A stretch of 64,000 nt of DNA from contig VGZY01000004.1 of NCBI GenBank assembly GCA_016872355.1, positions 15,688 to 79,687 of the forward strand. The letters are read 5' to 3'. Below the pieces are notes generated by a model. It had not been told where the DNA came from and searched no databases. It saw only the letters and a program-made list of their open reading frames with translations. Source of the DNA: SAR202 cluster bacterium (GTDB lineage Bacteria > Chloroflexota > Dehalococcoidia > Lucifugimonadales > VGZY01). The position numbers and the translations under genes were made by a program. This document shows positions 2,079 through 56,800 of this stretch, piece after piece; the stretch's first letter is position 1; each line of letters starts with the position of its first letter.

Positions 2079-2266
2079 CTGTGCGCGGGCGTTTTTCTCT
2101 TTTGACGTTTGGCGATTGCTTCCTCGTGCTCACGCCTGAACTTCTCGTTAAGGTCTTTCCAGTACTTCAGTACTTCGTCCTCCGACAGACCTTCCAGATC
2201 CTTGCGGATGCTTTCGCCGCCTTTGTGCTGGAGTTCTACGGCCTCTATACGCTTAGTCCTTGCCAT
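2075..2266 (-). CDS. Small charged protein downstream of a PIN gene (candidate antitoxin/partner)
   Basis: 63 aa from ATG 2264-2266 (MARTKRIEAVELQHKGGESIRKDLEGLSEDEVLKYWKDL...), preceded by GGAGGTGG. It overlaps the PIN gene's 3' end by 14 nt, and its stop overlaps the carA ATG. Confidence 0.55.
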
Positions 2267-2714
2267 ATACCACCTCCAACGGGGAGAAAATCCCGATATT
2301 GCCATAGCCTTGCAATGTGTTGACTGCGTTATACAGCGGTATTTTGTCGTACTGAACGATATGTTTGAAGTTCCAGCTTACTATCATTCCACATCTTGAA
2401 ACCGTCGCTGCTGCAACATGAATTGCATCTTCCGCCCATTTCGTAGATACGACCCCGGCCCGAATATATGCTTCAGCTAACGCATTAACGCTCGGAGTAA
2501 TCTCGGCGAGCTCGAGCAGCTCACGCACTTCATCGAGTACCCCCTGAACATTCGGAGGGGCCGGCTCAAGTTCTTTGAGAACCAGAGTTGAAATGACTAG
2601 CTGAAACCGGCCGTCCGCTATTTGGGAGAAGAAACGGCTGCTTGCCTCATCAAAGCCCCTATCGTACGCTCCACCGAAGACGGATGTGTCTGCGTACACC
2701 CTTTTCTTCTCCAA
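2253..2714 (-). CDS. PIN-domain protein (VapC-like), toxin-first arrangement
   Basis: 153 aa. N-terminal VYADTSVFGG and C-terminal DAIHVAAATVSRCGMIVSWNFKH are typical of PIN nucleases. There is no antitoxin-sized ORF upstream; only 34 nt separate it from the next gene. Confidence 0.75.
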   Translation of the reverse strand: MEKKRVYADTSVFGGAYDRGFDEASSRFFSQIADGRFQLVISTLVLKELEPAPPNVQGVLDEVRELLELAEITPSVNALAEAYIRAGVVSTKWAEDAIHVAAATVSRCGMIVSWNFKHIVQYDKIPLYNAVNTLQGYGNIGIFSPLEVVYGKD

Positions 2715-2748: not shown

Positions 2749-3462
2749 TCACACCTCGCCCAGTATCTTCGCCAGCTCGGCCGGCGCTGACAGGAACGGC
2801 GAGTGGCCGGTGTTCATTGTATAGACCTTCTTGCACGGAGTGGCGGTGTACATGTTTTTCTGGAAGGACGGCATGATCGCGAAGTCCTGGAGGCATTCTA
2901 TGTACACGCGCGGAACGCGGCCGAAGTTCTGGTCGGTGACGCGCACCCTGTCGCCGCGCGGGCCGGTCGGCTCCGGCTGGAGCAGCTTCTGCGCCCTCGC
3001 GACGTCCTCGTCCGCGCAGTCCTGGTAGAAGACGCCCTTCACCTTCGAGACGTCGATGTTAATCGTCACGCCGTCCGGGTTGGGGGAGACGATCGGCCGC
3101 AGCCTCGAGGGCTCATTCTTCGCCGTGACCTCTGGGACCGACTCGCCGTCCCTGAGCAGGTGCGCGGTCAGGTAGACCAGCGTCTTGATCCTGTCCGGCC
3201 TGGCCTCCGCGACGCCGGAGATCGTGATTCCCGCCAGGCTGTGGCCCACAAGCACTACCTTCTCGGGCAGCGAGTCCAGGGCCTGCACTACCTTGTCGAC
3301 GTTATGCTTGATCAGCAACCCGGCCGGCGGCGTCCTGTCCTTCCCGTGCGCCGGCAGGTCCACGGCGATGGCCTTGTGGCCCGCCTTCTCCAGGTAGGGT
3401 ATGAACTTGTCCCAGCACCACGCGCCGTGAAACGCGCCGTGCACCAGCACGTAAGTAGCCAT
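2749..3462 (-). CDS. Alpha/beta-fold hydrolase (SABP2/esterase-like)
   Basis: 237 aa. YVLVHGAFHGAWCWDK N-terminus and nucleophile elbow VLVGHSLAG. Confidence 0.8.
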   Translation of the reverse strand: MATYVLVHGAFHGAWCWDKFIPYLEKAGHKAIAVDLPAHGKDRTPPAGLLIKHNVDKVVQALDSLPEKVVLVGHSLAGITISGVAEARPDRIKTLVYLTAHLLRDGESVPEVTAKNEPSRLRPIVSPNPDGVTINIDVSKVKGVFYQDCADEDVARAQKLLQPEPTGPRGDRVRVTDQNFGRVPRVYIECLQDFAIMPSFQKNMYTATPCKKVYTMNTGHSPFLSAPAELAKILGEV

Positions 3463-3488
3463 TCAAACGCTCCGCCTTCTAGTCTTCC

Positions 3489-3613
3489 TTCTCTCCCCGA
3501 GGGAGAGGCCTTTGCTGCTCTGAGCAAAGGGTGAGGGCTCAGGCTGTCTGCCCCCTTCTTACCTCTCCCTTGACGGGAGAGGTCTTCGGCGCCCTGGCCG
3601 AAGGGTGAGGGTG
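3489..3613. repeat. Two tandem copies of the double-hairpin repeat module
   Basis: Copy 1 (3489-3539): CTCTCCCC-GA-GGGAGAGG, CCTTTGCTGCTCTGAGCAAAGG, GTGAGGG. Copy 2 (3562-3613): CCTCTCCC-TTGAC-GGGAGAGG, TCTTCGGCGCCCTGGCCGAAGG, GTGAGGGTG. Confidence 0.9.
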
Positions 3614-3631
3614 ACGGCTGCTGCGCCTGTT

Positions 3632-3647
3632 CCCCAGTCCCCAGTCC
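3632..3647. repeat. Heptamer tandem repeat CCCCAGT x2 (+ degenerate unit) abutting the pyrC stop codon
   Basis: tCCCCAGTCCCCAGTCCCTAg; the TAG stop of pyrC (3648-3650, minus strand) is the next triplet. Confidence 0.8.
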
Positions 3648-4970
3648 CTAGCCCCCAAAGACCACCTGCCCGCTGTAAACCGTTGCGGCCACCTTGCCCT
3701 TGAGCGTCGCGCCGTCAAGTGGCGTGTTCTTGCCCTTGGATGCGAACTGCTTTGCGTCCACCTTCCACTCGGCGTCCGGGTCGAAGATGGTCACGTCCGC
3801 GGGCGCCCCTGCCTTCAGCGTGCCGAGGTTCCTGCCCAGGAACTTCGCCGGCGCGACAGTCAGCTTCTCGATAAGCAGCGGCAGCGGCATGCCGCCGGAG
3901 TGCACCAGCGTCATGAGCAGTCCGAGCGTCGTCTCCAGGTTGCTGATGCCGTTAGCGGCCTCGTCGAACGTGCACTGCTTGTCCGTGCGGCTGTGCGGCG
4001 CGTGGTCGGTCGCGATGAAGTCCACAACGCCGTCCTTGAGCGCCTTTACCATCGCGGCAACATCCTCGCGTCCCCGCAGCGGCGGCGAGACGCGCGCGCT
4101 GGTGTCGTACGACGCCGTCGTGAGCGGGTCGAACCGCTTGCCTATGTTCGCGTAGCCCAGCACCGTCTCGTCCGGCAGCGTGAGGTGGTGCGGCGTTACC
4201 TCGCACGTCACGCTCAGGCCGCGCTCCTTCGCGCGCTTCACTATCTCCACGGTGCCCGACGTGCTTGCGTGGGCGACGTGCAGCCTGCCGCCGGTGATTT
4301 CCGCCAGCGAGACGTCGCGCGCCGCCATCGCCTCCTCTGACGAGCGGGGTATTCCGCGCAGGCCGAGGCGCGTGGCCACCCACCCTTCGTTCATGACGCC
4401 CGCGCCTGACAGCTCCTTCACTTCGCAGTGGTTGATGATCGGCAGCCCCAGGCCGGAGGCGTAGCTGAGCGCCTGGCGCATCACGTTGGCGTCGCCCACA
4501 GGGTGGCCGTCGTCGCTGAAGCCGATGACGCCGGACTTCGCCATCTCGCCCATCTCGGCCAGCTCGGCGCCCTTGCTACCCTTCGTCACCGCGCCGATGG
4601 GCAGGACGCGCACGACGCCCTCTTCCTTCGCGCGGCGGTTGACGAAGTCCACTATCGAGCTGTTGTCCATGACCGGGTTGGTGTTCGGCATCGCGCAAAG
4701 GGTGGTGAAGCCGCCGCGTGCCGCCGCCAGCGTGCCGCTCGCGATCGTCTCCTTGTACTCCAGCCCCGGCTCGCGGAGATGGCAGTGGAGGTCAATGAAG
4801 CCCGGGCACACGATCAGCCTCTGCGCGTCGATTACCTTTGCGCCCGCAGGCGGGTTGATCCGCGCGTCGATGCCGGTGATGACGCCGTTCTCGATGAGCA
4901 GGTCCGCGATCTTGTCGATGTTCTGCGACGGGTCGACGATGCGCCCGCCGGAGATGAGAATGGGGGTCAT
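3648..4970 (-). CDS. pyrC: Dihydroorotase
   Basis: 440 aa. Cyclic amidohydrolase motifs PGFIDLHCHLREPG and IATDHAPH. Located in the pyr operon context. Confidence 0.92.
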   Translation of the reverse strand: MTPILISGGRIVDPSQNIDKIADLLIENGVITGIDARINPPAGAKVIDAQRLIVCPGFIDLHCHLREPGLEYKETIASGTLAAARGGFTTLCAMPNTNPVMDNSSIVDFVNRRAKEEGVVRVLPIGAVTKGSKGAELAEMGEMAKSGVIGFSDDGHPVGDANVMRQALSYASGLGLPIINHCEVKELSGAGVMNEGWVATRLGLRGIPRSSEEAMAARDVSLAEITGGRLHVAHASTSGTVEIVKRAKERGLSVTCEVTPHHLTLPDETVLGYANIGKRFDPLTTASYDTSARVSPPLRGREDVAAMVKALKDGVVDFIATDHAPHSRTDKQCTFDEAANGISNLETTLGLLMTLVHSGGMPLPLLIEKLTVAPAKFLGRNLGTLKAGAPADVTIFDPDAEWKVDAKQFASKGKNTPLDGATLKGKVAATVYSGQVVFGG

Positions 4971-4974
4971 GTGG

Positions 4975-6024
4975 CTACTTTCCTCCGTGGGCCGGGGTGA
5001 CCAGCGTGTAGAGTATCGCCATGCGCACGGCGACGCCGTTCGTGACCTGCTCCTCGATCACCGAGGCCGCGCCGTGCGCTACCTCCGGGTCGATCTCCAC
5101 GCCCTCGTTTATGGGGCCCGGGTGCATGACAAGCGCATTCGGCTTTGCCAGCTTCATCCGGCGCGGGTTGATGCCCCAGATCCGCGAGTACTCGCGCAGC
5201 GTGGGCAGGTGGCCGGCCTTCATGCGCTCAAGCTGCAGGCGCAGCGCCATGACCACGTCCGCGCCCTCCAGCGCCTTTTCGACGTTGTTCTCGATCTTCA
5301 CGCCGGCGAAGGGGTGCCCCTTCTGCCTTTTGGCGCCGTTCAGGAAGTCCGGCGGCAGGAGCGTCGGCGGCGCGCACAGCGTCACGTCCGCGCCCATCTT
5401 CGTCAGCCCCCACAGGTTGGACCGCGCCACCCTGCTGTACAGGATATCGCCGACGATGACCACCTTCACGCCCTTGATCTTGCCCAGGTGCTGCTGGATG
5501 GTGAACATGTCCAGCAGCGCCTGCGTGGGGTGCGCGTGCGCGCCGTCGCCGGCGTTGATGACGCTGGCGTCCAGGTGCCTGGCCAGGAAGTGCGGCGCGC
5601 CCGAGTGCGGGTGGCGGATGACGATCATGTCCGCGTTCATCGCCTGCAGCGTCAGCGCCGTATCGTAGAGCGTCTCGCCCTTCTCCACGCTGCTCCCGCT
5701 GGAGGAGACGTTGATGACGTCCGCGCTGAGAATCTTCCCCGCTTGCTCGAACGATGCGCGGGTGCGTGTGCTGGCCTCGTAGAAGAGCGTGAAGATGCTC
5801 TTGCCGCGCAGCGTGGGCACCTTGCGGATGGCCCGCTGCTGAACCTCGCGCATTGCGACGGCGTTCTGAAGAACGTCGTCGACCTCCTGCGGCGTAAAGT
5901 CGTCCAGGTCCAGCACGTGGCGCCTGCCCGCCTGGGGCCGCGCGTTCGGGTTGATCGTCTGCACGCCGGCCACCCGGCTTGCTGCGGCTTGCGATGATGT
6001 CCCTTGAAGGGTCATGCCTCTCAT
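4975..6024 (-). CDS. pyrB: Aspartate carbamoyltransferase catalytic subunit
   Basis: 349 aa. Motifs [13 protein letters not shown] and [10 protein letters not shown]. Its ATG overlaps the pyrR TGA (ATGA), which supports the long N-terminus, but a later start cannot be excluded. Confidence 0.9.
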
Positions 6025-6566
6025 CTCCTTTGGATCAGGACCTCGTCCACGCCGTCGAGCTCCTGCACGCGGACCTTCACTTCCTCTTCCATCGAGGTCG
6101 GCACGTTCTTGCCCACGTAGTCCGCCCTTATGGGCAGCTCCCGGTGGCCGCGGTCTATCAGCACCGCTAGCTGGATACGGCGTGGCCTGCCGAAGTCGTT
6201 CAGCGCGTCCATCGCGGCGCGGATGGAGCGGCCGGTGAACAGCACGTCGTCCACCAGCACCACCAGCCTTCCCTCGATGGCCACCGGTATGTGCGTGGGC
6301 CGCATGATGGGCCTGCCGCCGGTGGAAAGGTCGTCGCGGTAAAGGCCGATATCCAGCGACCCCACCGGCGGGTCCGCGTCCTCGAACTCGCTGATCAGAG
6401 TCGCCAGCCTGCGCGCGATGGGCACGCCGCGCGAGTGCAGCCCCACCAGGACGATATCCTTCGCCCCGCCGGTGCGCTCCAGCACCTCGTGCGCGATGCG
6501 CGTCATCGCCCGCCGCACCTGGTCGGCGTCCATAATCTGCCGTGTTTCAACCGCCTGCTCGGTCAT
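6021..6566 (-). CDS. pyrR: Bifunctional pyr operon regulator / uracil phosphoribosyltransferase PyrR
   Basis: 181 aa from ATG 6564-6566 ([28 protein letters not shown]...), with PRTase motif [17 protein letters not shown]. The longer 249-aa ORF in the track would read through a terminator and a repeat, so it is rejected. Confidence 0.9.
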
Positions 6567-6570
6567 AACC

Positions 6571-6616
6571 TCTCTCCCTAACCCTCTCCCCTGAGAGGGG
6601 AGAGGGGATAAGAGGG
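6571..6616. repeat. Short-form hairpin repeat (CTCTCCCC-TGAG-AGGGGAGAG flanked by CCCTAACC)
   Basis: Lies between the pyr attenuator terminator and the pyrR start codon. Same subfamily as 32296-32345; both translate as [10 protein letters not shown] in one frame. Confidence 0.8.
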
Positions 6617-6619
6617 CAC

Positions 6620-6745
6620 AAAAAAACCTCTCGCCGTTGAGGTTGTGGCAAGAGGCTACTGCGGCCCGCGCCGCGCATGGCAACGCCGGTAAGTACCCGC
6701 GCGCCCGCTTCGTATTAGCCTTGCCAGCCTCTCGGGACTGACTTA
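6620..6745 (-). promoter_or_regulatory. PyrR-dependent transcription attenuator (binding loop + intrinsic terminator)
   Basis: The minus-strand RNA contains CAGUCCCGAGAGGCUGG (6726-6739 region), matching the PyrR binding-loop consensus remembered as AGUCCAGAGAGGCU. Downstream is the hairpin CCUCUUGCC-N11-GGCGAGAGG followed by U7 (6620-6657). Confidence 0.8.
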
Positions 6746-6773
6746 AAGGACCGTTGTCAGAGTCACTCACTCA

Positions 6774-6829: not shown

Positions 6830-6870
6830 GAACAGACATAGCGGACCAACCGGTCCGCCCTGTCTGTTCT
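6830..6870 (-). terminator. Long hairpin downstream of the DUF1761 gene (possible terminator, no U-tract)
   Basis: GAACAGACAGGGCGGACC-GGTT-GGTCCGCTATGTCTGTTC on the minus strand, preceded by a CAACTAC-type heptamer array (6878-6905). Confidence 0.4.
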
Positions 6871-6905
6871 TGCCAACTACCAACTTCTAACTACCAACTG
6901 CCCTC

Positions 6906-7328
6906 TTATTGCCAGAGCGTCAGCAGCACCGTCACGATGATTATCATCACGACGGAGTAGCCGGCCGTTATCACCCAGTGGGGCGGAGTCTTGTACTCGA
7001 ACGCGTAGTTCGTCGCGATGCTCGTCGCCACCAGGCCGATGCCGGTCACCGCGCCGATCTTGATGCCGCCCATTAGTTTGGAGGCGTCCAGGGCCTCCAC
7101 CAGCGAGGCCAGCGACAGCGTGATAACGGTCGCGCACACCACCGCGACCACGTAGGGCATCCACGACTTCGTCGTCCCTTTGTACGTGCCGATCTGCTCC
7201 TTCGTAATCCCCGTCTCCGCCATCCAGGGCTTTGCCCACACGCCGTACCAGGCCATGCCGCCCACCATGAACAAAACAATTCCCGCCGCTATTGCCAGAA
7301 AGTTCAGGTCCGAGATCTCAAACGGCAT
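6906..7328 (-). CDS. DUF1761-like small membrane protein
   Basis: 140 aa from MPFEISDLNFLAIAAGIVLFMVGGMAWYG..., with four hydrophobic segments. The start is chosen at the second ATG. Confidence 0.6.
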   Translation of the reverse strand: MPFEISDLNFLAIAAGIVLFMVGGMAWYGVWAKPWMAETGITKEQIGTYKGTTKSWMPYVVAVVCATVITLSLASLVEALDASKLMGGIKIGAVTGIGLVATSIATNYAFEYKTPPHWVITAGYSVVMIIIVTVLLTLWQ

Positions 7329-7448
7329 ACAGAGCTCCTTTGCTTCACTTCCTTTGACATCCACGCCGAGCGTCGACACCGATAACGGAAGTGGATTCTA
7401 CAGTCGAATCGCTGCAAAATCTAGGGGGCCTGCGGCGTATCGGGGAAT

Positions 7449-9645: not shown

Positions 9646-10980
9646 CTACTCCCCGTAGAACCACCGCGGGTCCAGCACCCGGACCCTGTTTCCGCGGTCG
9701 TGCGGCGCAAGGCCCAGCTTCTCCATGAGGGCGGTGTACTCGATCCCAAACTGCTCCCTGATCGCCGCCTTGTCGCCGAAGACGCAAATGCCATAGGTGA
9801 TCACCGCCTTGCCGTCCACGAACGTCAGCGCGGGCTCGTTCTGGCGGAGCGGGCCGGGCGCGCGGTGGTAGCGCTTGCGGTCGGTGGGCTGGCGGAACTT
9901 GCCGATGAGGAGGCGCTCGATCGGCGGCGTCTCGATGTACGCGACGTCGTCCAGGGACTCCAGGTTGCGGTGGTGCTGCCACGTCTCGCCATCGTCCTTG
10001 CTGATGGCGCAGGTGAGGCGGTGGCGGTAGTAGCCTTGCATAAGCTCCCACGGCGATGTCTGGTTCCAGATGACGAGCAGGTCCGTGTCGGCGTGATCCC
10101 TACCGTGTTCTCCTCTCCCGGCTCCGCGGGAGAGGACGTCCGGCTCCGCGGACAGGTGAGGGCGCGGTATCCTCTTGATGTTGCACGGCGCAGCCCCGGA
10201 CGCGAGGCCGGTCGGCACAGCCTCCGACCACGTCTCGCAGCCGTCGTCCGAGTACGCCTTGAAGTACTGGCCGAGCTGCGTGCGGCCGACCATCATCACG
10301 CGGCCGTCCTTCATCTCCACGACGGCGGGCTCCTCGATCGAGAACGAGCCGCCCACGCCGTTGCCCAGGATGACCCACGACTCATTCTTGCTCCGTTGCC
10401 ACGTCCGGCCTTCGTCGTCGGAGTAGTACGCGAAGCCGAACGCGAGCACGCCGCCCGCGCCGCCTGCGAAGTCCTCTCCGAAGCGCCGGAGCTTCTTCGG
10501 GTCGCCGCCCAGGTACTTTGTCCTGAGGGTCGCAAAGGAGGGCATCACAACGCGACCCGTCCGCAGAACGATGAGGTTGTCGTGGTTCGTGTGGATGTCC
10601 GTCCCCGGCGGGCTCACGTCCACGCCGTCCGACCACGTCGCCCCCTCGTCCGTCGACCTGTGGAATGTGTTGACGCTGGAGCCGTCCGCCGGTCGGTAAC
10701 GGGTCACGGAGAGCCCGATAGCGCCGCTGGTCAAACGCACGAGCTGCGTCTCGAAGGAGCCCGTGAGGGCGCCGCCGCCCGCCAGCTTCATAGACACGGG
10801 CGCGGTCCACATCTTTCCCATGTCCGACGAGTAGTTGACCTTGATCGGCCTGTCGTCCTTCGCGCCCTCGCCCCATACCCACATCAGCCGCCCGTCCTTC
10901 AGCCCAATGATGCTCGAATACGACGGGCTGAGCCCGACGGTATCCATCTTGATCGTAACGTTGGTAATTTCAGTGGACAC
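9646..10980 (-). CDS. BNR/sialidase-fold beta-propeller protein, paralogue 1 (no signal peptide)
   Basis: 444 aa with repeated SxDxGxTW (Asp-box) motifs: SSDMGKMWT, STDEGATWS, SDDEGRTWQ, SDDGCETWS, SKDDGETWQ. Contains a repeat-derived insert at 10095-10170. Confidence 0.8.
   Translation of the reverse strand: MSTEITNVTIKMDTVGLSPSYSSIIGLKDGRLMWVWGEGAKDDRPIKVNYSSDMGKMWTAPVSMKLAGGGALTGSFETQLVRLTSGAIGLSVTRYRPADGSSVNTFHRSTDEGATWSDGVDVSPPGTDIHTNHDNLIVLRTGRVVMPSFATLRTKYLGGDPKKLRRFGEDFAGGAGGVLAFGFAYYSDDEGRTWQRSKNESWVILGNGVGGSFSIEEPAVVEMKDGRVMMVGRTQLGQYFKAYSDDGCETWSEAVPTGLASGAAPCNIKRIPRPHLSAEPDVLSRGAGRGEHGRDHADTDLLVIWNQTSPWELMQGYYRHRLTCAISKDDGETWQHHRNLESLDDVAYIETPPIERLLIGKFRQPTDRKRYHRAPGPLRQNEPALTFVDGKAVITYGICVFGDKAAIREQFGIEYTALMEKLGLAPHDRGNRVRVLDPRWFYGE
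10095..10170. repeat. Hairpin repeat module embedded in frame in BNR paralogue 1
   Basis: CCTCTCCCGGCTCCGCGGGAGAGG ... GTCCGGCTCCGCGGAC AGGTGAGGG. It encodes RPHLSAEPDVLSRGAGRGEHGRDHAD, which is absent from paralogue 3. Confidence 0.8.
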
Positions 10981-11006
10981 TGGATTCTCCCGGCTCTTTG
11001 TATTGT

Positions 11007-11098
11007 CCCTCTCCCGGTTCGCGCGGCGGAACGGGAGAAGGAGGCTGTTAGCTCACTGCCGACTGCCGACTGCCGACTGCTCACTGCCCACTGCCATT
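11007..11098. repeat. Intergenic composite: hairpin (CCCTCTCCCG-N14-CGGGAGAAGG) + CTGCCGA-type heptamer array
   Basis: Hairpin at 11007-11043; heptamers CTGCCGA x3, CTGCTCA, CTGCCCA, CTGCCAT at 11050-11098. Fills the gap between BNR paralogues 2 and 1. Confidence 0.9.
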
Positions 11099-11102
11099 CC
11101 CC

Positions 11103-12461
11103 CTACTCCCCATAAAACCAGGCCGTCTTCAGCACGCGGACCCGGTTGCCGCTGTCGAAGGGGGCGAGCCCCAGCTTCTCCATAAGCGCCTGGTAGGACA
11201 CTCCGAAGCGCTGCGGGTTCTCCGCCTTGTCGCCGAAGGCGCGCACGCCGTAGGTGATAATGGCGGTGTCGCCAACGAAGGTGATCGATGGCTGGTTGCA
11301 CCTGAGCGGCCCCGGAGCGCGGTGTTAGCGCTTGCGGTCCACCGGCTGGGCCGTCTTGCCGATCAGGTCCGCCTCTACCGGCCCAGGTTCGATATACGCA
11401 ACGTCGTCCAGCGACTCCAGGTTGCGGTGGCGTTGCCACGTCTTGCCCTCGTCTTTGCTGACGGCGCAGGTCAGCCGGTGCCGGAAGAGGCCGTTCATCG
11501 TCTCCCACTGCGACGCCTGGTTCCAGATAACGAGGAGGTCGGCATCGGCGAGGTCGCTACCGTTTTCTCTTCTCCCGGCCCCGCGGGAGAGGATGTCGCG
11601 CTCCGGCGACAGGTGAGGGAGGTGAGGGCGCGGGATGCGAGTGACCGTCGCGGGTGAGGGGTAGCAGGCTAGGCCGGTAGGCTCGGGCATCGACCATGTC
11701 TCGCCGAGGTCGTCGGAATAGCACTGGAAGTGGCGGCCCAGGTTCGTTCGGCCGAGCATCATCACCCGCCCGTCAACGAGCTCCACCACAGCCGGCTCCC
11801 CCATCGAATAGCAGCCCAGCGCGCCGGTGTCCAGGACGACGAATGCCTCGTTGTTGCTGCGCTTCCAGGTGGCGCCCTCGTCGTCGGAGTAGTACGCGCT
11901 GGAGTACGCAAGCGCGCAGCGAGAGGCGCCGTCGAACGACTCTCCCAGTCGCTTGATGGCCCTTACGTCGCCCGTCGGCATCGGCCCCATCATGTCGTAG
12001 AAGGGGACAACTATCCGTCCATCCCTCAGGACTATCGAGCTCTCATTGGCGCATACGGCGTCCGCCCCCGGAGGGTTGATGCGCACCGGCGGCGACCACG
12101 TCGCGCCCTCGTCCTTCGAGGAGGTGAATATCAGCCCGGCGTGGTAGTCCGCCTCGTACGCGCCCGTGTGGGCATAGGCCCGCATCACGAGGCCGATGCC
12201 GCCGGACTTGAGCCTGAAGATGTTCGTTTCCATGATGGCCGGCAGCGGCCCGCCGGTCGTCAGCTTGAGGTGCACCGGCGCGGACCACGTCGCGCCACCG
12301 TCCTCGGAGAAGTTCGCCCGCACGGGCTTCACGGGGTCCGCGCTGCCGGAGCCGTACACCCACATGAGCCGGCCGTCGCGCAGCGGCAGCACAGCGCCGT
12401 AGGATGGGCTGAGGTCTACCGTGTCCAGCTTGATCGTCGCATTAACGAGATCCGACGCCAT
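11103..12461 (-). pseudogene. BNR/sialidase-fold paralogue 2, interrupted by one in-frame TAA
   Basis: The frame from MASDLVNATIKLDTVDLSPSYG (ATG 12459-12461) reads to ...QPVDRKR, then TAA at 11325-11327. It then continues in the same frame as HRAPGPLRCNQPSITFVGDTAIITYG...KTAWFYGE to TAG at 11103-11105. Paralogues 1 and 3 have Tyr at the stop position (RKRYHRAPGPL / LKRYHRSPGPL). Confidence 0.85.
11545..11640. repeat. Hairpin repeat module embedded in frame in BNR paralogue 2
   Basis: CTTCTCCCGGCCCCGCGGGAGAGG ... CAGGTGAGGGAGGTGAGGG. It encodes RPHLPHLSPERDILSRGAGRRENGSDLAD at the same site as in paralogue 1. Confidence 0.8.
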
Positions 12462-12480
12462 AGGCCTCCCTCCGGCTGTT

Positions 12481-12528
12481 ACCGACAGCTCACTGTTGCT
12501 CCGAACCCCGATTCCATCGGGGCCTACC
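12481..12528. repeat. Degenerate heptamers + CCCCGAT-TCC-ATCGGGG hairpin
   Basis: Intergenic between BNR paralogues 3 and 2. The hairpin core is shared with the 33089-33174 element. Confidence 0.6.
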
Positions 12529-13803
12529 CTACTCACCGTAGAACCAGCTCGACGACACTACCCGGACTTTGTTCCCCCGGTCGTACGGGGCGAGGCCCAG
12601 CTTCTCCATGAGCGCCTCGTACGATAAGCCGAACCGCTCCGGGATCTCCGCCTTGTCGCCGAAGACGCACATTCCGTAGGTAATGACCGCCTTGTCGCCA
12701 ACGAAGACACACGAGGGCTGGTTGAAGCGCAGCGGGCCGGGAGATCGGTGGTAGCGCTTGAGGTCCGCCGGCTGTTTGAACTTGCCTACGAGGTCGATCT
12801 GGATCGGCCCCGGCTCGATGTAGGACACGTCGTCCATCGATTCCAGGTTGCGGTGGTGCTGCCACGTCTTCCCCTCGTCCTTGCTCACAGCAGTGCTAAG
12901 GCGGTGGCGGTAGAGGCCGTTCATAGTTTCCCACTGTGATATCTGGTTCCAGATGACGACCAGATCGCCGGTGGTCGTGATGCGCTTGATCGTCGCCGGA
13001 GAGGGGTAGCATGCGAGCTGCGTCGGCTCCGGCTGCATCCACGTCTCGCCCGCGTCGTCGGATACGCTCTGGAAGAAGCGGCCAACGTTTGTGCGCGCCA
13101 GCATCAGCACCTTGCCGCCCTTCAGCTCCACCACGGCCGGCTCGCCCATGGAGTAGCTGCCTCCCGCGCCGTGTTCAAGGTTCACGAAGGCCTCATTGTT
13201 GCTCCGCCTCCACGTCGCGCCCTCGTCGTCGGAAAGGAACGCGCTGCAGTAGTAGAGCGTCGCGCGCTCGGGATTGCTGAAGCTCGCGCCGTACCTCTGC
13301 ACCGCCCGCACTTCGCCATACGGCTTCGCGCCGATGCCGATGTAGTACGGCACGATGATGCGGCCGCTGCTGTGGACGATCGACTTCTCGTTCGTAATGA
13401 CGGCGTTCGTTCCGGGCGGGTTGATAGTCACTGGCGGCGACCACGTCGCGCCCTCGTCTTGCGAGGCTGAGAAGATGATGCTCGCCTGGTAGTCGGCCTC
13501 GTATGCTCCGGCCTTCGCGGACCCCCGCAGCACAAGGCCGATGCCGCCGGACTTCAGTCTGAAGAGGTTCGTATCGAGGACGGCAACGAAGGGCTCGCCG
13601 GTCGTGAGTTTGAGGTGCACGGGCGCGGACCACGTCGCGCCTCCATCGCTGGAAAAGTTCGCCCGAACGGGGAGTGCGGGGTTGGCCCTGCCGGAGGTGT
13701 ATATCCACATCAGCCGCCCGTCGTTGAGCGGGATCACCGCCCCATAAGACGGGCTCTGGTCTACCTTGCCCATCTTCACGATGGTGTTTACGTATTCAGG
13801 CAT
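12529..13803 (-). CDS. BNR/sialidase-fold beta-propeller protein, paralogue 3
   Basis: 424 aa from MPEYVNTIVKMGKVDQSPSYG, with Asp-boxes SSDGGATWS, SQDEGATWS, SDDEGATWR, SDDAGETWM, SKDEGKTWQ. Lacks the repeat-derived insert (..IKRITTTGDLVVIWNQ..). Confidence 0.8.
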   Translation of the reverse strand: MPEYVNTIVKMGKVDQSPSYGAVIPLNDGRLMWIYTSGRANPALPVRANFSSDGGATWSAPVHLKLTTGEPFVAVLDTNLFRLKSGGIGLVLRGSAKAGAYEADYQASIIFSASQDEGATWSPPVTINPPGTNAVITNEKSIVHSSGRIIVPYYIGIGAKPYGEVRAVQRYGASFSNPERATLYYCSAFLSDDEGATWRRSNNEAFVNLEHGAGGSYSMGEPAVVELKGGKVLMLARTNVGRFFQSVSDDAGETWMQPEPTQLACYPSPATIKRITTTGDLVVIWNQISQWETMNGLYRHRLSTAVSKDEGKTWQHHRNLESMDDVSYIEPGPIQIDLVGKFKQPADLKRYHRSPGPLRFNQPSCVFVGDKAVITYGMCVFGDKAEIPERFGLSYEALMEKLGLAPYDRGNKVRVVSSSWFYGE

Positions 13804-13882
13804 GGCATGCTCCCGCGAGTTTAGCCGGTGGCGGCTCCGGTGTAGCGGAGCCGTCCGTGGGGAGCATAGTAGAGTCACAGGC

Positions 13883-14567: not shown

Positions 14568-14618
14568 CCTAACACCTAACACCTAACACCTAACACCCAA
14601 TCCCTGACACCTAACACC
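14568..14618. repeat. Heptamer tandem array (CCTAACA)4-CCCAATC-CCTGACA-CCTAACA
   Basis: Seven consecutive 7-nt units end 2 nt before the ATG at 14619. They lie in the divergent region between 14399 (-) and 14619 (+). Confidence 0.9.
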
Positions 14619-14987
14619 ATGCCTGACACCAACGTCAAAATTCACGACTATGCCGACGAGCTGATATCCACGCCGCGCGCGCACCTGGCGCTTGATCTGT
14701 CGCAGGACGAGCAGGGGCTGAAGCTCAGCCACGACGGGAAGATGCTCGTGGAGTGCTACATCACGCGGGATGGGATGGCTGCGGGCGGGTTCATGGCGAA
14801 GGCGCTGGGGGTAAAACTTCCACCGCTGGGAAAGGCCGTGAAGGCGCGCGTCTCCACAGGGGTCCTCTTCCGAGCGGTATCTATAGCGTCGCTGGACTTC
14901 AACGTCGAGGAGTCGTTCGAGCTTCTGGAGCGGTGGCTGGAGGAGGCAGAGCTTCAGCGCGGCGGTGAGGATGTGTCGGCGTCGTAG
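14619..14987 (+). CDS. Hypothetical protein (no family recognised)
   Basis: 122-aa ORF MPDTNVKIHDYADELISTPRAHLALDLSQDEQ.... No Shine-Dalgarno is visible because the heptamer array reaches the start codon. Confidence 0.45.
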   Translation: MPDTNVKIHDYADELISTPRAHLALDLSQDEQGLKLSHDGKMLVECYITRDGMAAGGFMAKALGVKLPPLGKAVKARVSTGVLFRAVSIASLDFNVEESFELLERWLEEAELQRGGEDVSAS

Positions 14988-26691: not shown

Positions 26692-26743
26692 CACCCTCAC
26701 CCTTTGCCCAGAGCGGCAAAGGCCTCTCCCTCAATGGAGAGGA
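26692..26743. repeat. Double-hairpin repeat module, reverse orientation
   Basis: CCCTCAC, CCTTTGCCCAGAGCGGCAAAGG, CCTCTCCC-TCAAT-GGAGAGG is the reverse complement of the module at 3489-3613 and 54572-54623. Confidence 0.9.
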
Positions 26744-32300: not shown

Positions 32301-32343
32301 TCTCTCCCCCCTTCCCTCTCAGGGAAGGGGGCCAGGGGGTTAG
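29321..32343 (+). pseudogene. putA: Bifunctional proline dehydrogenase / P5C dehydrogenase (PutA), frame broken at a G5 run
   Basis: The N-terminus MVSVNIGRIEERTQEIGRRLYGLL...RMLRFVDVMAGLPEG is read from ATG 29321 in one frame. The remainder, from (G)TARQVAALLREYFADE... through the PRODH and ALDH domains (..EMGGKNP.., FGHAGQKCSA, EEIFGPV, PFGGFNFSGTGPKAGGEDYL), is in the -1 frame. The switch is at GAGGGGGC (29513-29520), and one extra G would restore a single frame. The 3' end runs into a repeat (32296-32345). Confidence 0.85.
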
Positions 32344-33088: not shown

Positions 33089-33174
33089 GTAGCCCGCCCC
33101 GATGCATCGGGGCCTGTCTTGCTCGCCGGTGATGCCTGCATGCAACGCGGGCCCCGATGCATCGGGGCGGCTAC
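33089..33174. repeat. 86-bp nested-palindrome element (two GTAGCC-GCCCCGATGCATCGGGGC arms around a 36-nt core)
   Basis: Left arm: GTAGCCCGCCCCGATGCATCGGGGC (33089-33113). Right arm: GCCCCGATGCATCGGGGCGGCTAC (33151-33174). Same architecture and length as 16978-17062. Confidence 0.8.
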
Positions 33175-33225
33175 GTGAAGTCAAATCGCCCCGATACAAC
33201 CGGGCCGCTGTCTTGCCGACGGCTC

Positions 33226-33270
33226 TCTGCTCACTGCCGACTGCCATCTGCTGACTGCCATCTGCCATCC
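33226..33270. repeat. Heptamer array (..CTG-ending units: CTCACTG CCGACTG CCATCTG CTGACTG CCATCTG CCATCCT)
   Basis: Reverse complement is GGATGGCAGATGGCAGTCAGCAGATGGCAGTCGGCAGTGAG, the same GGCAGTC family as in ileS and 11050-11098. Confidence 0.8.
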
Positions 33271-33302
33271 TGCTATAATCGTCCGATAGAACTTCAAGCC
33301 GC

Positions 33303-40013: not shown

Positions 40014-40883
40014 TCACAATCCCCGCACCCACTCGATCTGCCTTTCCAATCCCTCCACCGGCCCGAACGTCTCCAGCAATATCGTTGCGTCCATGCCACG
40101 GATTGAGCGGTGGAATGGGCGGGGCAATGTGCCGGTGCCGAGGTCTCCGTGGGTGTCTGCACGGCCGCGGGGGTCGTACAGGAAGTTGTCGCTCCAGTGG
40201 ACGTGGCGGACTTTGGGGGCGAGGTCTAGGAATTTCATCAGCTCCCGTTCGCGGTGCTCTGTCGGGAAGCGCTGAACGTATGTGCAGGCGTGGCTGGCGT
40301 CCAGCGTGAGGCCAACGTTGGATTTCCCGATGTCGTCGTACGCCTGCGAGAGATCGTCAGGTGTGACGCCGAAGAACTGGTACGCCTGCTTTGACCAGTC
40401 TACCTGGTCGCCGGTGGTCTCCGGCGCGATGCCGGTCCACTCCAGCCCCTGATTTTCGATCACTATCTCCACGGCGTACTTCGCCGCGTAGTCTGCGATC
40501 TGCCGGTAGCCGTCTATCATGCGGGCGTAGTCGCCGTAGGTGACGCGCGGCGGGTCCGCGTCGCGCCACACCATCGCGTTGAAGTGGATGCTTACCTGTT
40601 TCAGCTTCGGGAAGTCGCGCACCATGTCTATGTAGTCCATGACCGCCCGGATGCATAGCTTCCGGTAGGCGTCGTCCGTTGCGCCGACGTTGAGGCCCAG
40701 GCCATCGATGGACGTAGGGCCGTGGGCGCTGATCATGATGTCGCGATACGGGAGCATCCGGTCGCGGGTGCTGTGTATCTCGCCCTCGACAGCTAGGCCG
40801 AGGCGCTGGAGTGCTTCGAGGGGGTAGTGCATCATGCCGGAGAGCGGCGGACGGCGGAGATTCTGAAAGGTTGCCTGGCGCAT
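40014..40883 (-). CDS. Xylose-isomerase-like TIM-barrel protein (sugar phosphate isomerase/epimerase family), paralogue 1
   Basis: 289 aa. VRHVHWSDNFLYDPRGRADTHGDLGTGTLP and LTLDASHA motifs are shared by all four tandem paralogues. Confidence 0.75.
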   Translation of the reverse strand: MRQATFQNLRRPPLSGMMHYPLEALQRLGLAVEGEIHSTRDRMLPYRDIMISAHGPTSIDGLGLNVGATDDAYRKLCIRAVMDYIDMVRDFPKLKQVSIHFNAMVWRDADPPRVTYGDYARMIDGYRQIADYAAKYAVEIVIENQGLEWTGIAPETTGDQVDWSKQAYQFFGVTPDDLSQAYDDIGKSNVGLTLDASHACTYVQRFPTEHRERELMKFLDLAPKVRHVHWSDNFLYDPRGRADTHGDLGTGTLPRPFHRSIRGMDATILLETFGPVEGLERQIEWVRGL

Positions 40884-40928
40884 CTCACCCTCTCTGTCGC
40901 GACATCTCTCCCATCAAGGGAGAGACAA
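40884..40928. repeat. Degenerate hairpin repeat (CTCACCCTC ... TCTCTCCC-ATCA-AGGGAGAGA)
   Basis: Intergenic between TIM-barrel paralogues 2 and 1, followed by CGACAGC-type heptamer-like units. Confidence 0.6.
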
Positions 40929-53624: not shown

Positions 53625-53860
53625 TCGAAATCTTAATCGGTATCGGCGACGACGGAGACGAGTAGCGGGAAGCGGCCGCACAGCGAGTCTGGCGGCCCGA
53701 TGCAGATCGGGCCAAGGTGTGAGCAGACGCGACGCGCCCCGGCGAATATCACTCCCGAGCCGAGCTTAACGAAGGTGTCCTGAGGCCCGCCGCTCAGGAA
53801 ACTAGGGTGGTACCGCGGGTAGATCATGCCCGTCCCTTGCGCAGGGACGGGCATTTTTGT
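53625..53860 (+). promoter_or_regulatory. T-box riboswitch leader, Ile specifier (AUC)
   Basis: Canonical T-box sequence AGGGTGGTACCGCG (53803-53816). Specifier-loop-like GAATATCA with ATC at 53748-53750 followed by a purine. Terminator ATGCCCGTCCC-TTGCGCA-GGGACGGGCAT + TTTTT (53826-53858), directly upstream of ileS. TGcTAAAAT extended -10-like box at 53609-53617. Confidence 0.85.
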
Positions 53861-53875
53861 TTGAGGTGGTCTCAT

Positions 53876-56800
53876 ATGTTCAAGCCGGTCAGCTCTAAAG
53901 TGGACTTTGTAGCCGTCGAGCATGCGATGCAGGAGTTCTGGGACAAGAACCAGGTCCGGCAAAAGTACCTCGAGCGCAACGACGGCGCGGAGAAAAGGTA
54001 CTCCTTCATCGATGGCCCCATCACGGCTAATAACCCCATGGGTGTCCACCACGGCTGGGGCCGCACCTATAAGGACCTCTTCCAGCGCTTCAAGGCCATG
54101 CAGGGCTACGACCAGCGCTTTCAAAACGGCTTCGACGGCCAGGGCCTGTGGATTGAGGTCGAGGTGGAGAAGCAGCTCGGACTGAACTCCAAGCGCGACA
54201 TCGAGAAGTACGGAATCGACAAGTTCATCGAGCTCTGCAAAGAGCGCGTCAGGAAGTTCGCCGCTATCCAGACCAACCAGTCGATCCGCCTCGGCTATTG
54301 GATGGACTGGGAGAACTCGTACCACACGATGTCGGACGAGAACAATTACTCGATCTGGCACTTCCTCAAGGTGTGCTTCGAGCGCGGCTGGGTCTACGAG
54401 GGCACGGACGTCATGCCGTGGTGTCCCCGCTGCGGAACCGGCCTGTCGCAGCACGAGATTGTGACCGAGGGCTACAAGGAGATCACCCACCCCGGCCTGT
54501 TCGTCCGCTTCCCGCTGGTGCAGAATGGCAGTCAGCAGTCGGCAGTCGGCAGTCAGCCGGAGGGGTCTGTTCCTCTCCCTCAGGGAGAGGCCTTTGGGCG
54601 CTTTGGCCCAAAGGGTGAGGGTGTTCCCCTGCCCGAGTCTCTCCTCATCTGGACGACCACTCCGTGGACGCTCACCGCCAACGCCGGCGCTGCCGTCCAC
54701 CCGGACCTCACCTACGTGAAGGTGAAGGTAAAGGGCACCGCGCCCGACAAGGGCGACGAGGTGCTGTACCTCCTGAAGGAGCGCCTGTCCGTCCTCAAGG
54801 CGGAGCACGAGATCCTGCGCGAGATGCCGGGCAAGATGCTTGGGGGCCTCGTCTACCGCGCGCCGTTCGAGGAGCTGAAAGCCCAGGAGGGCGTCAAGCA
54901 CCGAGTCGTCGTGTGGGATGAGGTCAGCCAGAGCGAGGGCACCGGCATCGTGCACAACGCGCCCGGCGCGGGCCAGGAGGACTTCGCTCTCGGCAAGAAG
55001 GAGGGGCTGTCCGTAATCGCGCCGCTGGACGAGTTCGGCAGCTTCGTCGAGGGGTTCGGTTCGTTCACCGGCAAGAGCGTCTTCGAGGTCAACAAGCCGA
55101 TCTATGACAGCCTGCGCGAGAAGGGCGTCTTCTACCGGCTGGACCAGTACAAGCACCGCTACCCCGTATGCTGGCGCTGCAACACAGAGCTCGTCTTCAG
55201 GCTCGTGGACGAGTGGTTCATCTCCATGGACGAGCTGCGGCACATGATCGCCAACGTTGCCAAACAGGCGCGGTGGATACCGGAGTTCGGACTCCAGCGC
55301 GAGCTGGACTGGCTCAACAACATGCACGACTGGATGATCTCAAAAAAGCGCTACTGGGGCCTTGCGCTGCCCATCTACAAGTGCTCCTGCGGCCACTTCG
55401 AGGTCATCGGCAGCGAGACCGAGCTGGGCCTGCGGGCGATCGAGGGGTGGGACAAGTTCCAGGGACACTCCCCTCACCGCCCGTGGATAGACCACGTCAA
55501 GATCGAGTGCCCGCGGTGCGGCGGCAAGGTGTCGCGCATCAAGGACGTCGGCAACCCGTGGCTGGACGCCGGCATCGTGCCGTTCTCGACACTCCAGTAC
55601 CGCCACGACAAGGAGTACTGGAAGAAGTGGTTCCCGGCGGACCTCGTCTCCGAGAGCTTCCCGGGCCAGTTCCGCAACTGGTTCTACTCCCTGCTGACCA
55701 TGAGCACGGCTCTCGAGAACGCCACGCCGTTCAAGAACATCTTCACCTACGCCCTCATGCGCGACGAGAAGGGCGAGGAGATGCACAAGAGCAAGGGCAA
55801 CGCAATCTGGTTCGAGGACGCCGCCGAGAAGATGGGCGCGGACTCCATGCGCTGGCTCTACAGCCGCCAGAACCCGCCGCAGAACCTGAACTTCGGCTTC
55901 AACGTCGCGGACGAGGTGCGCCGCCAGTTCATAATCCCGCTGCGGAACGTTTACAGCTTCTTCGTCACCTACGCGAATATCGACAACTTCGACCCCACGT
56001 CGCCCGCGCCCGCGTTGAAGGACCGTGCCGAGCTCGACCGCTGGATCATCTCGGAGCTCAACAAGCTCGTCGCGGACGTTACGAACGCCCTCGAGAACTA
56101 CAGCCCGGACGGCGCGGCCAAGGCGTGCGAAGAGTTCGTGGAGTACCTGTCGAACTGGTACGTCCGCCGCAGTCGCCGCCGCTTCTGGAAGAGCGACGTC
56201 GACCAGGACAAGCAGTCCGCGTACTTGACGCTGTACGAGTGCCTGACGACGCTCACGAGGCTGCTCGCCCCGTTCATGCCGTTCCTGATGGAGGAGATGT
56301 ACCAGAATCTGGTAGTCGGCAGTCAGCAGTCAGCAGTCGGCAAAGCCAAAGAGAGCGTCCACCTGGACGACTTCCCCGTCTCAGACCCATCGAAGATCGA
56401 CACACGCCTGTCGGACGCTACCCGACTGGCGATGAAGCTCTCCAGCCTGGGCCGCTCCGCGCGCGCCAGGACCTCCATCAAGGTGCGCCAGCCGGTCGAG
56501 AAGCTCCTCGTGAAGCTGCGTGCGACGGAGGAGGCGGCCCTGCTGGAGCAGGTGGCCCCACAGGTGCGCGATGAGCTGAACGTCAAGCAGGTAGAAGTGC
56601 TCAAGGACGAGACGCAGGTCATGACCATCGACATCAAGCCGAACCTGGCGCTCCTGGGTCCCGAGTACGGCGCAAACATGCGCAAGGTCGTCGCCGCGCT
56701 CCAGGCGCTGCCGCCGATGGAGGTCTACGCGCAGGCGTCGTCCGGCAAGCAGGTCAAGGCGGGCGAGTTCACGCTGGAGCCTCAGGAAGTCCTCGTGAAC

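Follow-up and report, generated by a model that had tools for sequence, protein, structure and literature searches.

We analysed a stretch of 64,000 nt (the window) from contig VGZY01000004.1 of a SAR202 cluster bacterium (Chloroflexota), in which the gene pyrC, encoding dihydroorotase, is separated from the next co-directional gene, encoding an alpha/beta-fold hydrolase, by a gap of 185 bp (3463-3647). Our reading, to which we assign a probability of about 0.72, is that this spacer is occupied by two unrelated classes of genome-wide repeats, namely triplex-type modules of the BoxC family and an array of heptamers similar to the short tandemly repeated repetitive (STRR) sequences, and that it carries no dedicated operon signal. 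The initial annotation had described the gap as made almost entirely of two copies of a double-hairpin module and a CCCCAGT array reaching the pyrC stop codon; this anatomy was borne out by the sequence, by Tandem Repeats Finder (TRF) and by shuffled controls, while the extent of the repeats was overstated, as they cover about two thirds of the 185 bp. On this reading, an apparently special operon gap is ordinary repetitive DNA.

The two modules of the gap, of ~50 nt each, lie on the plus strand, as a direct repeat. Copy A (3491-3537), antisense to the pyr transcript, consists of two hairpins and a tail: CTCTCCC (3491-3497), the loop CGA and the purine arm GGGAGAGG (3501-3508) are followed by a linker hairpin, CCTTTGCT/AGCAAAGG (3509-3530), and by the third-strand tail GGGTGAGGG (3529-3537). 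Copy B (3562-3611), placed 25 nt downstream, has the arms CCTCTCCC (3562-3569) and GGGAGAGG (3575-3582), the linker hairpin CTTCGGC/GCCGAAG (3584-3603) and the tail GGGTGAGGG (3603-3611). Folded as single-stranded DNA (ssDNA), copy A gives two hairpins and a free tail at −13.5 kcal/mol (z −2.15), and copy B reaches −16.9 kcal/mol (z −4.49); two hairpins and a free tail were obtained for all the window copies by nearest-neighbour folding, which predicts hairpins only. The stems of the second hairpin differ between the two copies by compensatory changes (CCTTTGC/GCAAAGG in A vs. CTTCGGC/GCCGAAG in B), and the tail GGGTGAGGG is invariant. The module ends form an imperfect 9-bp inverted repeat (CCCTCTCCC...GGGTGAGGG). 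A G-quadruplex reading of the module was also considered and rejected, as the SAR202 and whale-fall copies do not contain four G-tracts.

The assignment to the BoxC family is based on the order of the module parts. The E. coli BoxC element, named also PIT or TMECO in the literature (Bachellier, 1990s; Hoyne & Maher 2000; Holder et al. 2015), follows the formula 5'-CCCTCNCCC N3-6 GGGNGAGGG N3 GGGNGAGGG-3' and is described as a class II intrastrand triplex of the purine-motif kind, whose third strand runs antiparallel to the purine arm and forms G.G:C, A.A:T and T.A:T triads (Holder et al. 2015, NAR 43:10126, PMC4666352). Homopyrimidine and complementary homopurine arms, for which a length of at least 7-9 nt is required, are present in our copies (CTCTCCC/GGGAGAG in A, CCTCTCCC/GGGAGAGG in B and C, and likewise in the others); read in mirror order, GGGAGAGG gives GGAGAGGG, from which the tail, GGTGAGGG, differs by one A replaced by T. 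A sequence-agnostic triplex finder, which requires only a pyrimidine arm, a purine arm complementary to it and a third strand mirroring the latter, returned 8-9 sites in the window with no third-strand mismatches, and none in 10 shuffles; similarly, CTCTCCC-N3-8-GGGAGAG occurs 6 times in the window vs. 0.00 in shuffles. One of the sites is a canonical short-loop copy of BoxC/TMECO type at 6572-6606 on the minus strand (CCCTCTCCCC - TCTCA - GGGGAGAGGG - TTA - GGGAGAGAGG), whose second loop, TTA, is that of TMECO type A; the segment 6566-6612 shows 86% identity over 44 nt with sequences found in all 5426 of 5426 complete E. coli genomes, at a median of 13 places per genome. The long-loop copies have only arms and tail in common with E. 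coli: a second loop of 3 nt was found only at 6572-6606 and, as CCA, at 32307-32341 (plus strand), where CCCCCTT/AAGGGGG/GGGGGTT follows the triplex rule with an unrelated sequence, whereas the gap copies carry stem-loop linkers of 21-23 nt. Judging from these features, we place the module in BoxC/PIT/TMECO as a long-loop variant, in which a stem-loop replaces the 3-nt second loop, and it would bring this kind of element into a new phylum.

We propose that the layout 5'-pyrimidine arm CCTCTCCC-loop-purine arm GGGAGAGG-linker-mirror third strand GGGTGAGGG-3' acts at an ssDNA stage, in which the arms would pair as a hairpin and the tail would lie antiparallel on the purine arm through the same three kinds of triads. 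A variable stem-loop evolving by compensatory changes stands where the E. coli element has its second loop of 3 nt, an architecture found also in the Rfam family Whalefall-1 (see below). The module would spread or persist through an ssDNA stage, in replication or repair. The heptamer array, in turn, would be a product of replication slippage and would abut the stop codon because expansion deeper into pyrC is selected against. At the RNA level, the effect in the pyr operon would be passive only, coming from four stable hairpins in the intercistronic RNA.

Seven long-loop copies occur in the window, in both orientations; relative to the transcription around them, two copies run sense and four antisense, and the remaining one is in a convergent gap. 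In addition to A and B, copy E (10111-10161, plus strand) is part of an in-frame insertion of 72 nt, antisense, in a BNR/sialidase-like gene (9646-10980, minus strand); copy E2 (11570-11627, plus strand) occupies the matching position in the tandem paralog and has a doubled tail (AGGTGAGGG twice); copy D (26695-26742, minus strand) is found between two convergent genes; the short copy F (40883-40925, minus strand), sense, lies between two co-directional genes, with the purine tail abutting the ATG of the gene 40014-40883; and copy C (54572-54621, plus strand), sense, is in-frame inside the isoleucyl-tRNA synthetase (IleRS) gene, with a heptamer array 14 nt upstream.

To follow the module outside the window, species genomes of GTDB were scanned with the pattern CTCTCC-N3-10-GGAGAGG-N18-32-AGGGTGAGGG. 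The long-loop form was found in at least 120 genome loci, mostly from Sphingomonas, Caulobacter, Azospirillum and other Alphaproteobacteria; Rokubacteria, Methylomirabilia, Terriglobia, SAR202, Dehalococcoidia, Anaerolineae and Planctomycetota are further taxa among the matches listed, and metagenomes provided at least 106 loci with the SAR202-type module. A short-loop form, GGGAGAGGG-TA-GGGTGAGGG, is present in loci of Rokubacteria, Methylomirabilia and Dehalococcoidia. The copies were parsed by regular expression and their linkers folded singly: 146 distinct linker sequences were counted in 156 copies, 143 form at least 5 bp, and the mean folding energy is −11.0 kcal/mol vs. −6.0 kcal/mol in shuffles. 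All 24 close pairs of modules from other taxa are inverted, and the A/B pair of the window is the sole direct one (++). Many alphaproteobacterial linker loops are GNA triloops with a C:G closing pair, which reportedly give unusually stable DNA mini-hairpins. The module adjoins a FabI-like gene in 8 loci (L030 and seven others), which suggests a site conserved across species.

The module behaves as inserted DNA: its copies face either way, they lie in spacers and also in-frame in protein surface loops, and a paralog with an empty site exists. In the BNR paralogs, the copies E and E2 correspond to an in-frame insertion of 72-81 nt at matching position, where the third paralog (12529-13878) shows a clean gap of 24 codons. 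In IleRS (53807-57142), about 34 extra residues (QNGSQQSAVGSQPEGSVPLPQGEAFGRFGPKGEGVPLPE), composed of a heptamer array and the module, are located just ahead of the conserved WTTTPWT motif, as seen in the comparison both with IleRS of the PDB and with relatives of 1042 residues, which have only DRPDE there. At the same site about 25-30 of 120 homologues carry differing low-complexity inserts, for example TPNPQPL-type peptides (from CCCYAAC heptamers) and GVRGEG-type peptides; the position before WTTTPWT is a hot spot for repeat insertion among SAR202-like relatives. In-frame copies were detected also in large multidomain open reading frames (ORFs) of the loci L188 (8087-11617) and L158 (2-3235), which resemble proteins of the ATPase-regulator and cyclase kinds; L158 has a second repeat-encoded peptide (TPHPNLPPQGGKE) after the module. 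In general, modules are rarer in open frames than the controls (15% vs. 59% and 33% vs. 82%), and in-frame intragenic insertion is the most unusual feature of the module. In-frame copies, including one in an aminoacyl-tRNA synthetase, widen the known range of the element and bear on gene calling and on spurious hypothetical proteins in GC-rich metagenome-assembled genomes, and the filled and empty sites are material for the study of repeat spread. As a separate observation, the middle BNR paralog (~11106-12461, in the cluster 9646-13878) has an in-frame stop within DRKR*HRAPG, which could be due to a pseudogene, a sequencing error or recoding.

The second class of repeats is represented in the gap by a TCCCCAG/CCCCAGT array (3631-3657, plus strand; 3.9 copies by TRF) with two perfect CCCCAGT units (3632-3645); the pyrC stop codon (TAG, minus strand, 3648-3650) falls inside the third, degenerate unit, and pyrC, aligned end-to-end with the solved dihydroorotases of the PDB, has a C-terminus of native length. 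As a single word CCCCAGT is not enriched in the window (8 vs. 8.75), and only its tandem arrangement is unusual. TRF found about eight heptamer arrays in the 64 kb, with the units GGCAGTC (4-5 arrays), CCCCAGT, CCTAACA and CCAACTA; the GGCAGTC, CCTAACA and CAACTAC arrays named in the initial annotation were recovered, and its view that several heptamer types and the hairpin module are small repeats spread over the genome proved correct. Three arrays begin no more than 10 nt past a stop codon, namely those of pyrC, DUF1761 and BNR paralog 2; one reaches into a start codon, one is intergenic and two are in IleRS. The CCAACTA array (6873-6899, plus strand; 3.9 copies) is separated by about 5 nt from the DUF1761 stop codon (gene 6906-7379, minus strand); it adjoins a nested hairpin, GAACAGACA...TGTCTGTTC with the inner stem GCGGACC/GGTCCGC (6830-6870), which is terminator-like on both strands. 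The ACTGCCG array (equivalent to GGCAGTC; 11055-11095, plus strand; 5.9 copies) lies 10 nt past the stop codon of BNR paralog 2 (11106) and adjoins the hairpin CTCTCCCGGTTC...GAACGGGAGAAG (11008-11045). The CCTAACA array (14568-14630, plus strand; 7.3 copies, with a super-period of 21 nt) reaches into the ATG at 14619, and the intergenic CTGCCGA/CTGCCAT array (33214-33274, plus strand) is downstream of three small palindromes (CCCCGATGCATCGGGG and a variant, 33097-33210), which form a further family of hairpin repeats. In IleRS, GCAGTCA/GGCAGTC (54528-54557, plus strand; 4.3 copies) is translated in-frame as GSQQSAVGS, and the GGCAGTC-type array AGTCAGC (56314-56342, plus strand) as VVGSQQSAVGK; the latter adds about 5 residues near residue 815.

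Relatives with 68-70% IleRS identity and a G+C content of 62-63% have heptamer arrays at the equivalent IleRS hot spot, often G-rich and then C-rich, with the units CCCCAAC, CCCCAGT or CCCTAAC. In related metagenomic and genomic loci, we also often observed inverted pairs of arrays, in which a run of one unit is followed by a short spacer and by a run of its reverse complement (L183 938-1045, L192 10329-10393, L215 1271-1371, L168 630-712, L122 10646-10707 and L125 1235-1303); such pairs could form long hairpins.

Are modules and arrays parts of one system? The initial annotation had proposed so, seeing in heptamers and hairpins a single composite system which punctuates operons at stop codons. 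In its favour, a layout of stop codon, array, one or more hairpins and next start recurs in the pyrC gap, at 10981-11105, at 6830-6905 and at 33097-33274, three arrays start within 10 nt of a stop codon, and IleRS has an array next to a module. On the other hand, the hairpins adjoining the arrays fall into three or more families unrelated to one another, and arrays also overlap a start codon and sit in-frame in IleRS. To this we can add a metagenome census of 106 loci (569 kb) chosen for the SAR202-type module, containing 116 modules, in which a repeat period of 7 outnumbers every other (44 of the 102 tandem arrays of three or more copies). An array was within 40 nt of 2 of the 116 modules, vs. 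1.27 expected (P = 0.37), and within 120 nt of 6, vs. 2.28 expected (P = 0.017), an excess to be expected when modules and arrays alike keep to spacers. The loci of other taxa in which the module was found (at least 120) are almost devoid of arrays, and the relatives with IleRS arrays showed no module in 78 kb of their DNA. Census, relatives and loci of other taxa together indicate no dependence of one repeat class on the other, only a common use of permissive sites. Thus, the composite-system model is largely refuted by the metagenome census, and we consider it very improbable.

Termination or stability punctuation inside the operon, as proposed for the gap, was not supported either. No terminator-like site was detected in 3463-3647, nor a terminator with a U-tract; the modules occur in both orientations and in-frame in coding sequences, and PIT elements in E. 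coli are reported to have neither promoter nor terminator activity (PMC4666352). The actual cis-regulatory RNA of the pyr operon is the PyrR binding site with its attenuator and U-tract terminator upstream of pyrR (6618-6753, minus strand; Rfam RF00515, full length, 47.1 bits with a gathering threshold of 54, E = 1.4e-5), with a terminator-like site at 6644-6625 and a promoter-like site at 6803-6774, and neither repeat class is a dedicated pyr signal. The BoxC-type copy 6572-6606 lies after the attenuator terminator and before the pyrR ATG, with its third strand serving also as Shine-Dalgarno region. Most likely, transcription reads through the gap, where the hairpins may have a passive effect on mRNA decay.

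An active role at the RNA level was nevertheless weighed, i.e., that the modules, perhaps jointly with the heptamers, work in the transcript as a small RNA of the Whalefall-1 type, as a barrier to 3'-exonucleases or as a site of processing by which the genes downstream are uncoupled from pyrRBC. The compensatory changes in the second hairpin would fit such a role, as would the minus-strand RNA of the gap, which folds as four hairpins at −91.7 kcal/mol; the z-score of this fold is only −1.62. Copies were searched with the Whalefall-1 model (Rfam RF01762) and aligned over its full length (model positions 1-56) with 18.5 bits for A, 21.4 for B and 25.0 for C, while the gathering threshold of 37 bits was reached neither in the window nor in 18 module loci; at gathering thresholds, the window and these 18 loci contained no known RNA family except one ZMP riboswitch. 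Whalefall-1, known only from whale-fall metagenomes, has been read as a small RNA (Weinberg et al. 2010, PMC2864571) and rated likely RNA from its covariation. For the heptamers, a proposal that cyanobacterial STRRs influence transcript stability exists (PMC2670836). Against an RNA element, the copies are sense, antisense, in convergent gaps and inside coding sequences, and the G-rich motif is antisense to the pyr mRNA. Moreover, RNA is stated not to form purine-motif triplexes (PMC4666352), which favours an element acting at the DNA level. Taken together, we judge the RNA-level explanation improbable, though somewhat less so than the composite system.

The seed alignment of Whalefall-1 (PMC2864571, supplementary file 175) can be read also in a different way, since in it the tail co-varies with the purine arm from one main subtype to the other (GGGGAGA with AGAGGG, GGAGGGA with AGGGUG). 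We infer from this alignment that Whalefall-1 may belong to the long-loop group of BoxC/PIT/TMECO; if so, it is to be re-read as a DNA element. In the seed, the two subtypes are arranged as inverted doublets on single contigs, 30-50 nt apart.

Several observations weigh against our own reading of the gap. Of the 8 module sites in the window, 2 are no more than about 15 nt away from an array, with P of about 0.01 under uniform placement and about 0.3 if both kinds of repeat are confined to spacers, and a local link between modules and arrays may exist in the SAR202 genome. Triplex formation by the modules, and likewise by their hairpin-linked version, is a prediction from the sequence rule, and for TMECO itself the triplex was seen in vitro on single strands and left no footprint in vivo (PMC4666352). 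The conservation of arms and tail among the matches is by design, because both scans used to collect them demanded conserved arms and tail. The purine tails of the copies 6572-6606 and 40883-40925 are at the Shine-Dalgarno position of the next gene, which may reflect occasional co-option. As regards the spread of the module, no recurrent transposase was found near 156 copies by all-against-all clustering of the 724 ORFs within 1.5 kb (about 1 Mb in total), and the single filled/empty BNR pair shows as target-site duplication only a weak, unconvincing direct repeat (7/11); this pair demonstrates the insertion as such.

The last points bear also on a further explanation, namely that the module is a mobile element of REP/REPIN type or a miniature inverted-repeat transposable element, moved by an HUH transposase (RAYT or IS200-IS605-like) or by another transposase recognising ssDNA hairpins. 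The filled and empty BNR sites and the imperfect 9-bp terminal inverted repeat are what such an element could leave; the inverted doublets of other taxa (24 of 24) and of the Whalefall-1 seed, and the C:G-closed GNA triloops in many alphaproteobacterial linkers, point in the same direction. This explanation is countered by the 724 ORFs, which gave only housekeeping families such as FabI, and DUF559 in two loci, not significant; by the lack of association of TMECO with mobile elements (PMC4666352); by the absence of a GTAG/CGTC head; by near-identical arms across phyla, unlike the lineage-specific REP/RAYT; and by the direct orientation of the window pair. We consider a transposase-driven element possible but doubtful, and retain the two independent repeat classes as the better account of the gap. 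As to transposases in general, the SAR202 relatives L122, L123, L124 and L125 (14-23 kb each) contain 1-2 DDE_Tnp_1_4/DDE_Tnp_1 transposase genes per locus, and L123 also a group II intron reverse transcriptase.

The genes around the gap were assigned by Pfam and, for pyrC, also by PDB alignment. On the minus strand, pyrC (3648-4970; PDB 3d6n, E = 3e-120; NCBI MBM3933009.1, SAR202) is the 5' neighbour of the gap and the hydrolase gene (2749-3462), which is not a pyr gene, the 3' neighbour; pyrB (4975-6024), a pyrR-like ORF (6021-6770, true start near 6567) and carA (930-2078) are on the same strand. Between hydrolase and carA, a stretch of lower GC content (2100-2714, minus strand) encodes a PIN-domain protein (PF13470, sub-threshold) and a small basic ORF, which may be a toxin-antitoxin-like cassette. 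Since non-pyr genes lie between pyrC and carA, the string of pyr genes is interrupted. The G+C content of the window is about 63%, and the NCBI proteins MBM3933005-09, annotated as SAR202 cluster bacterium, are exact matches to proteins of the window. An independent assembly, a Logan contig from SRR7990526, is 100% identical over 3563-5556 and ends inside module B.

Could the scattered relatives of the module be one family? Tentatively, we suggest that the Whalefall-1 "RNA", the double-hairpin doublets of Alphaproteobacteria and the SAR202 modules form one pan-bacterial family of ssDNA triplex hairpins, long-loop relatives of BoxC with new mobilising machinery, although we hold this to be rather less probable than not. 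In that case, arms and tail would be near-constant owing to the triplex requirement or to recognition by a conserved replication or repair factor, the family would be able to insert in-frame into essential proteins, and it would promote local slippage, seeding heptamer arrays. If the link holds, BoxC/PIT/TMECO, the orphan Whalefall-1 and an unannotated double-hairpin repeat, abundant in Alphaproteobacteria and occurring also in Chloroflexota, Rokubacteria and other phyla, are connected here, a link that we did not find in the literature examined.

Compared with known systems, the module is closest to BoxC/PIT/TMECO. Common to both are the pyrimidine arm, the purine arm and the mirror purine third strand, with words nearly identical to CCCTCNCCC/GGGNGAGGG/GGGNGAGGG, the presence in multiple copies without strand bias and the inverted doublets in many genomes. 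Differently from the E. coli elements, which belong to Proteobacteria, the host here is a member of Chloroflexota, the gap copies are in direct tandem and their linker of 21-23 nt exceeds the second loop of 1-6 nt permitted by the ITxF search. While TMECO in E. coli MG1655 are reported as "always intergenic" (PMC4666352), three of the seven long-loop copies of the window are inside coding sequences (IleRS and two BNR paralogs). Whalefall-1 resembles the module in the first hairpin, CUCUCC/GGAGAG-like, and in the variable second hairpin with covariation, and its seed doublets resemble the type A/B doublets of TMECO (PMC4666352) and those of Alphaproteobacteria; the window element differs in being independent of orientation and in features that fit a triplex motif at the DNA level. 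REP/BIME and REPIN-RAYT systems are short GC-rich repeats forming hairpins, mostly extragenic and often in inverted doublets (Bertels & Rainey 2011, PMC3116915). The modules are likewise short, GC-rich, hairpin-forming, mostly extragenic and, in other taxa, often in inverted doublets; however, no RAYT was found near the sampled copies (about 1 Mb), a GTAG head is lacking and the sequence is conserved across phyla. In behaviour only, they recall the Rickettsia palindromic elements, short structured repeats found in-frame in protein genes at permissive surface positions, to which they are unrelated in sequence and structure; these elements are said to be 100-150 bp long and limited to Rickettsia.

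Finally, the heptamer arrays are best compared with the STRRs. CCCCAGT is said to be the unit of the cyanobacterial STRR1, to which the CCCCAGT and CCCCAAC units would correspond, and the initial annotation had named it in that context; the host, according to the annotation of its proteins, is a SAR202 bacterium of the Chloroflexota. The likeness to STRRs lies in the tandem units of 7 nt, in the several sequence types and in the dispersed arrays, mostly intergenic and near start or stop codons, of which inverted pairs are able to fold as hairpins. The differences, besides the host, which is not cyanobacterial, are the dominant unit GGCAGTC and the arrays placed in-frame in an essential gene. 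In Beggiatoaceae, TAACTGA heptamer repeats are cited in a preprint (bioRxiv 10.1101/2022.06.06.494920). The arrays described here extend STRR-like heptamers beyond cyanobacteria and Beggiatoaceae.

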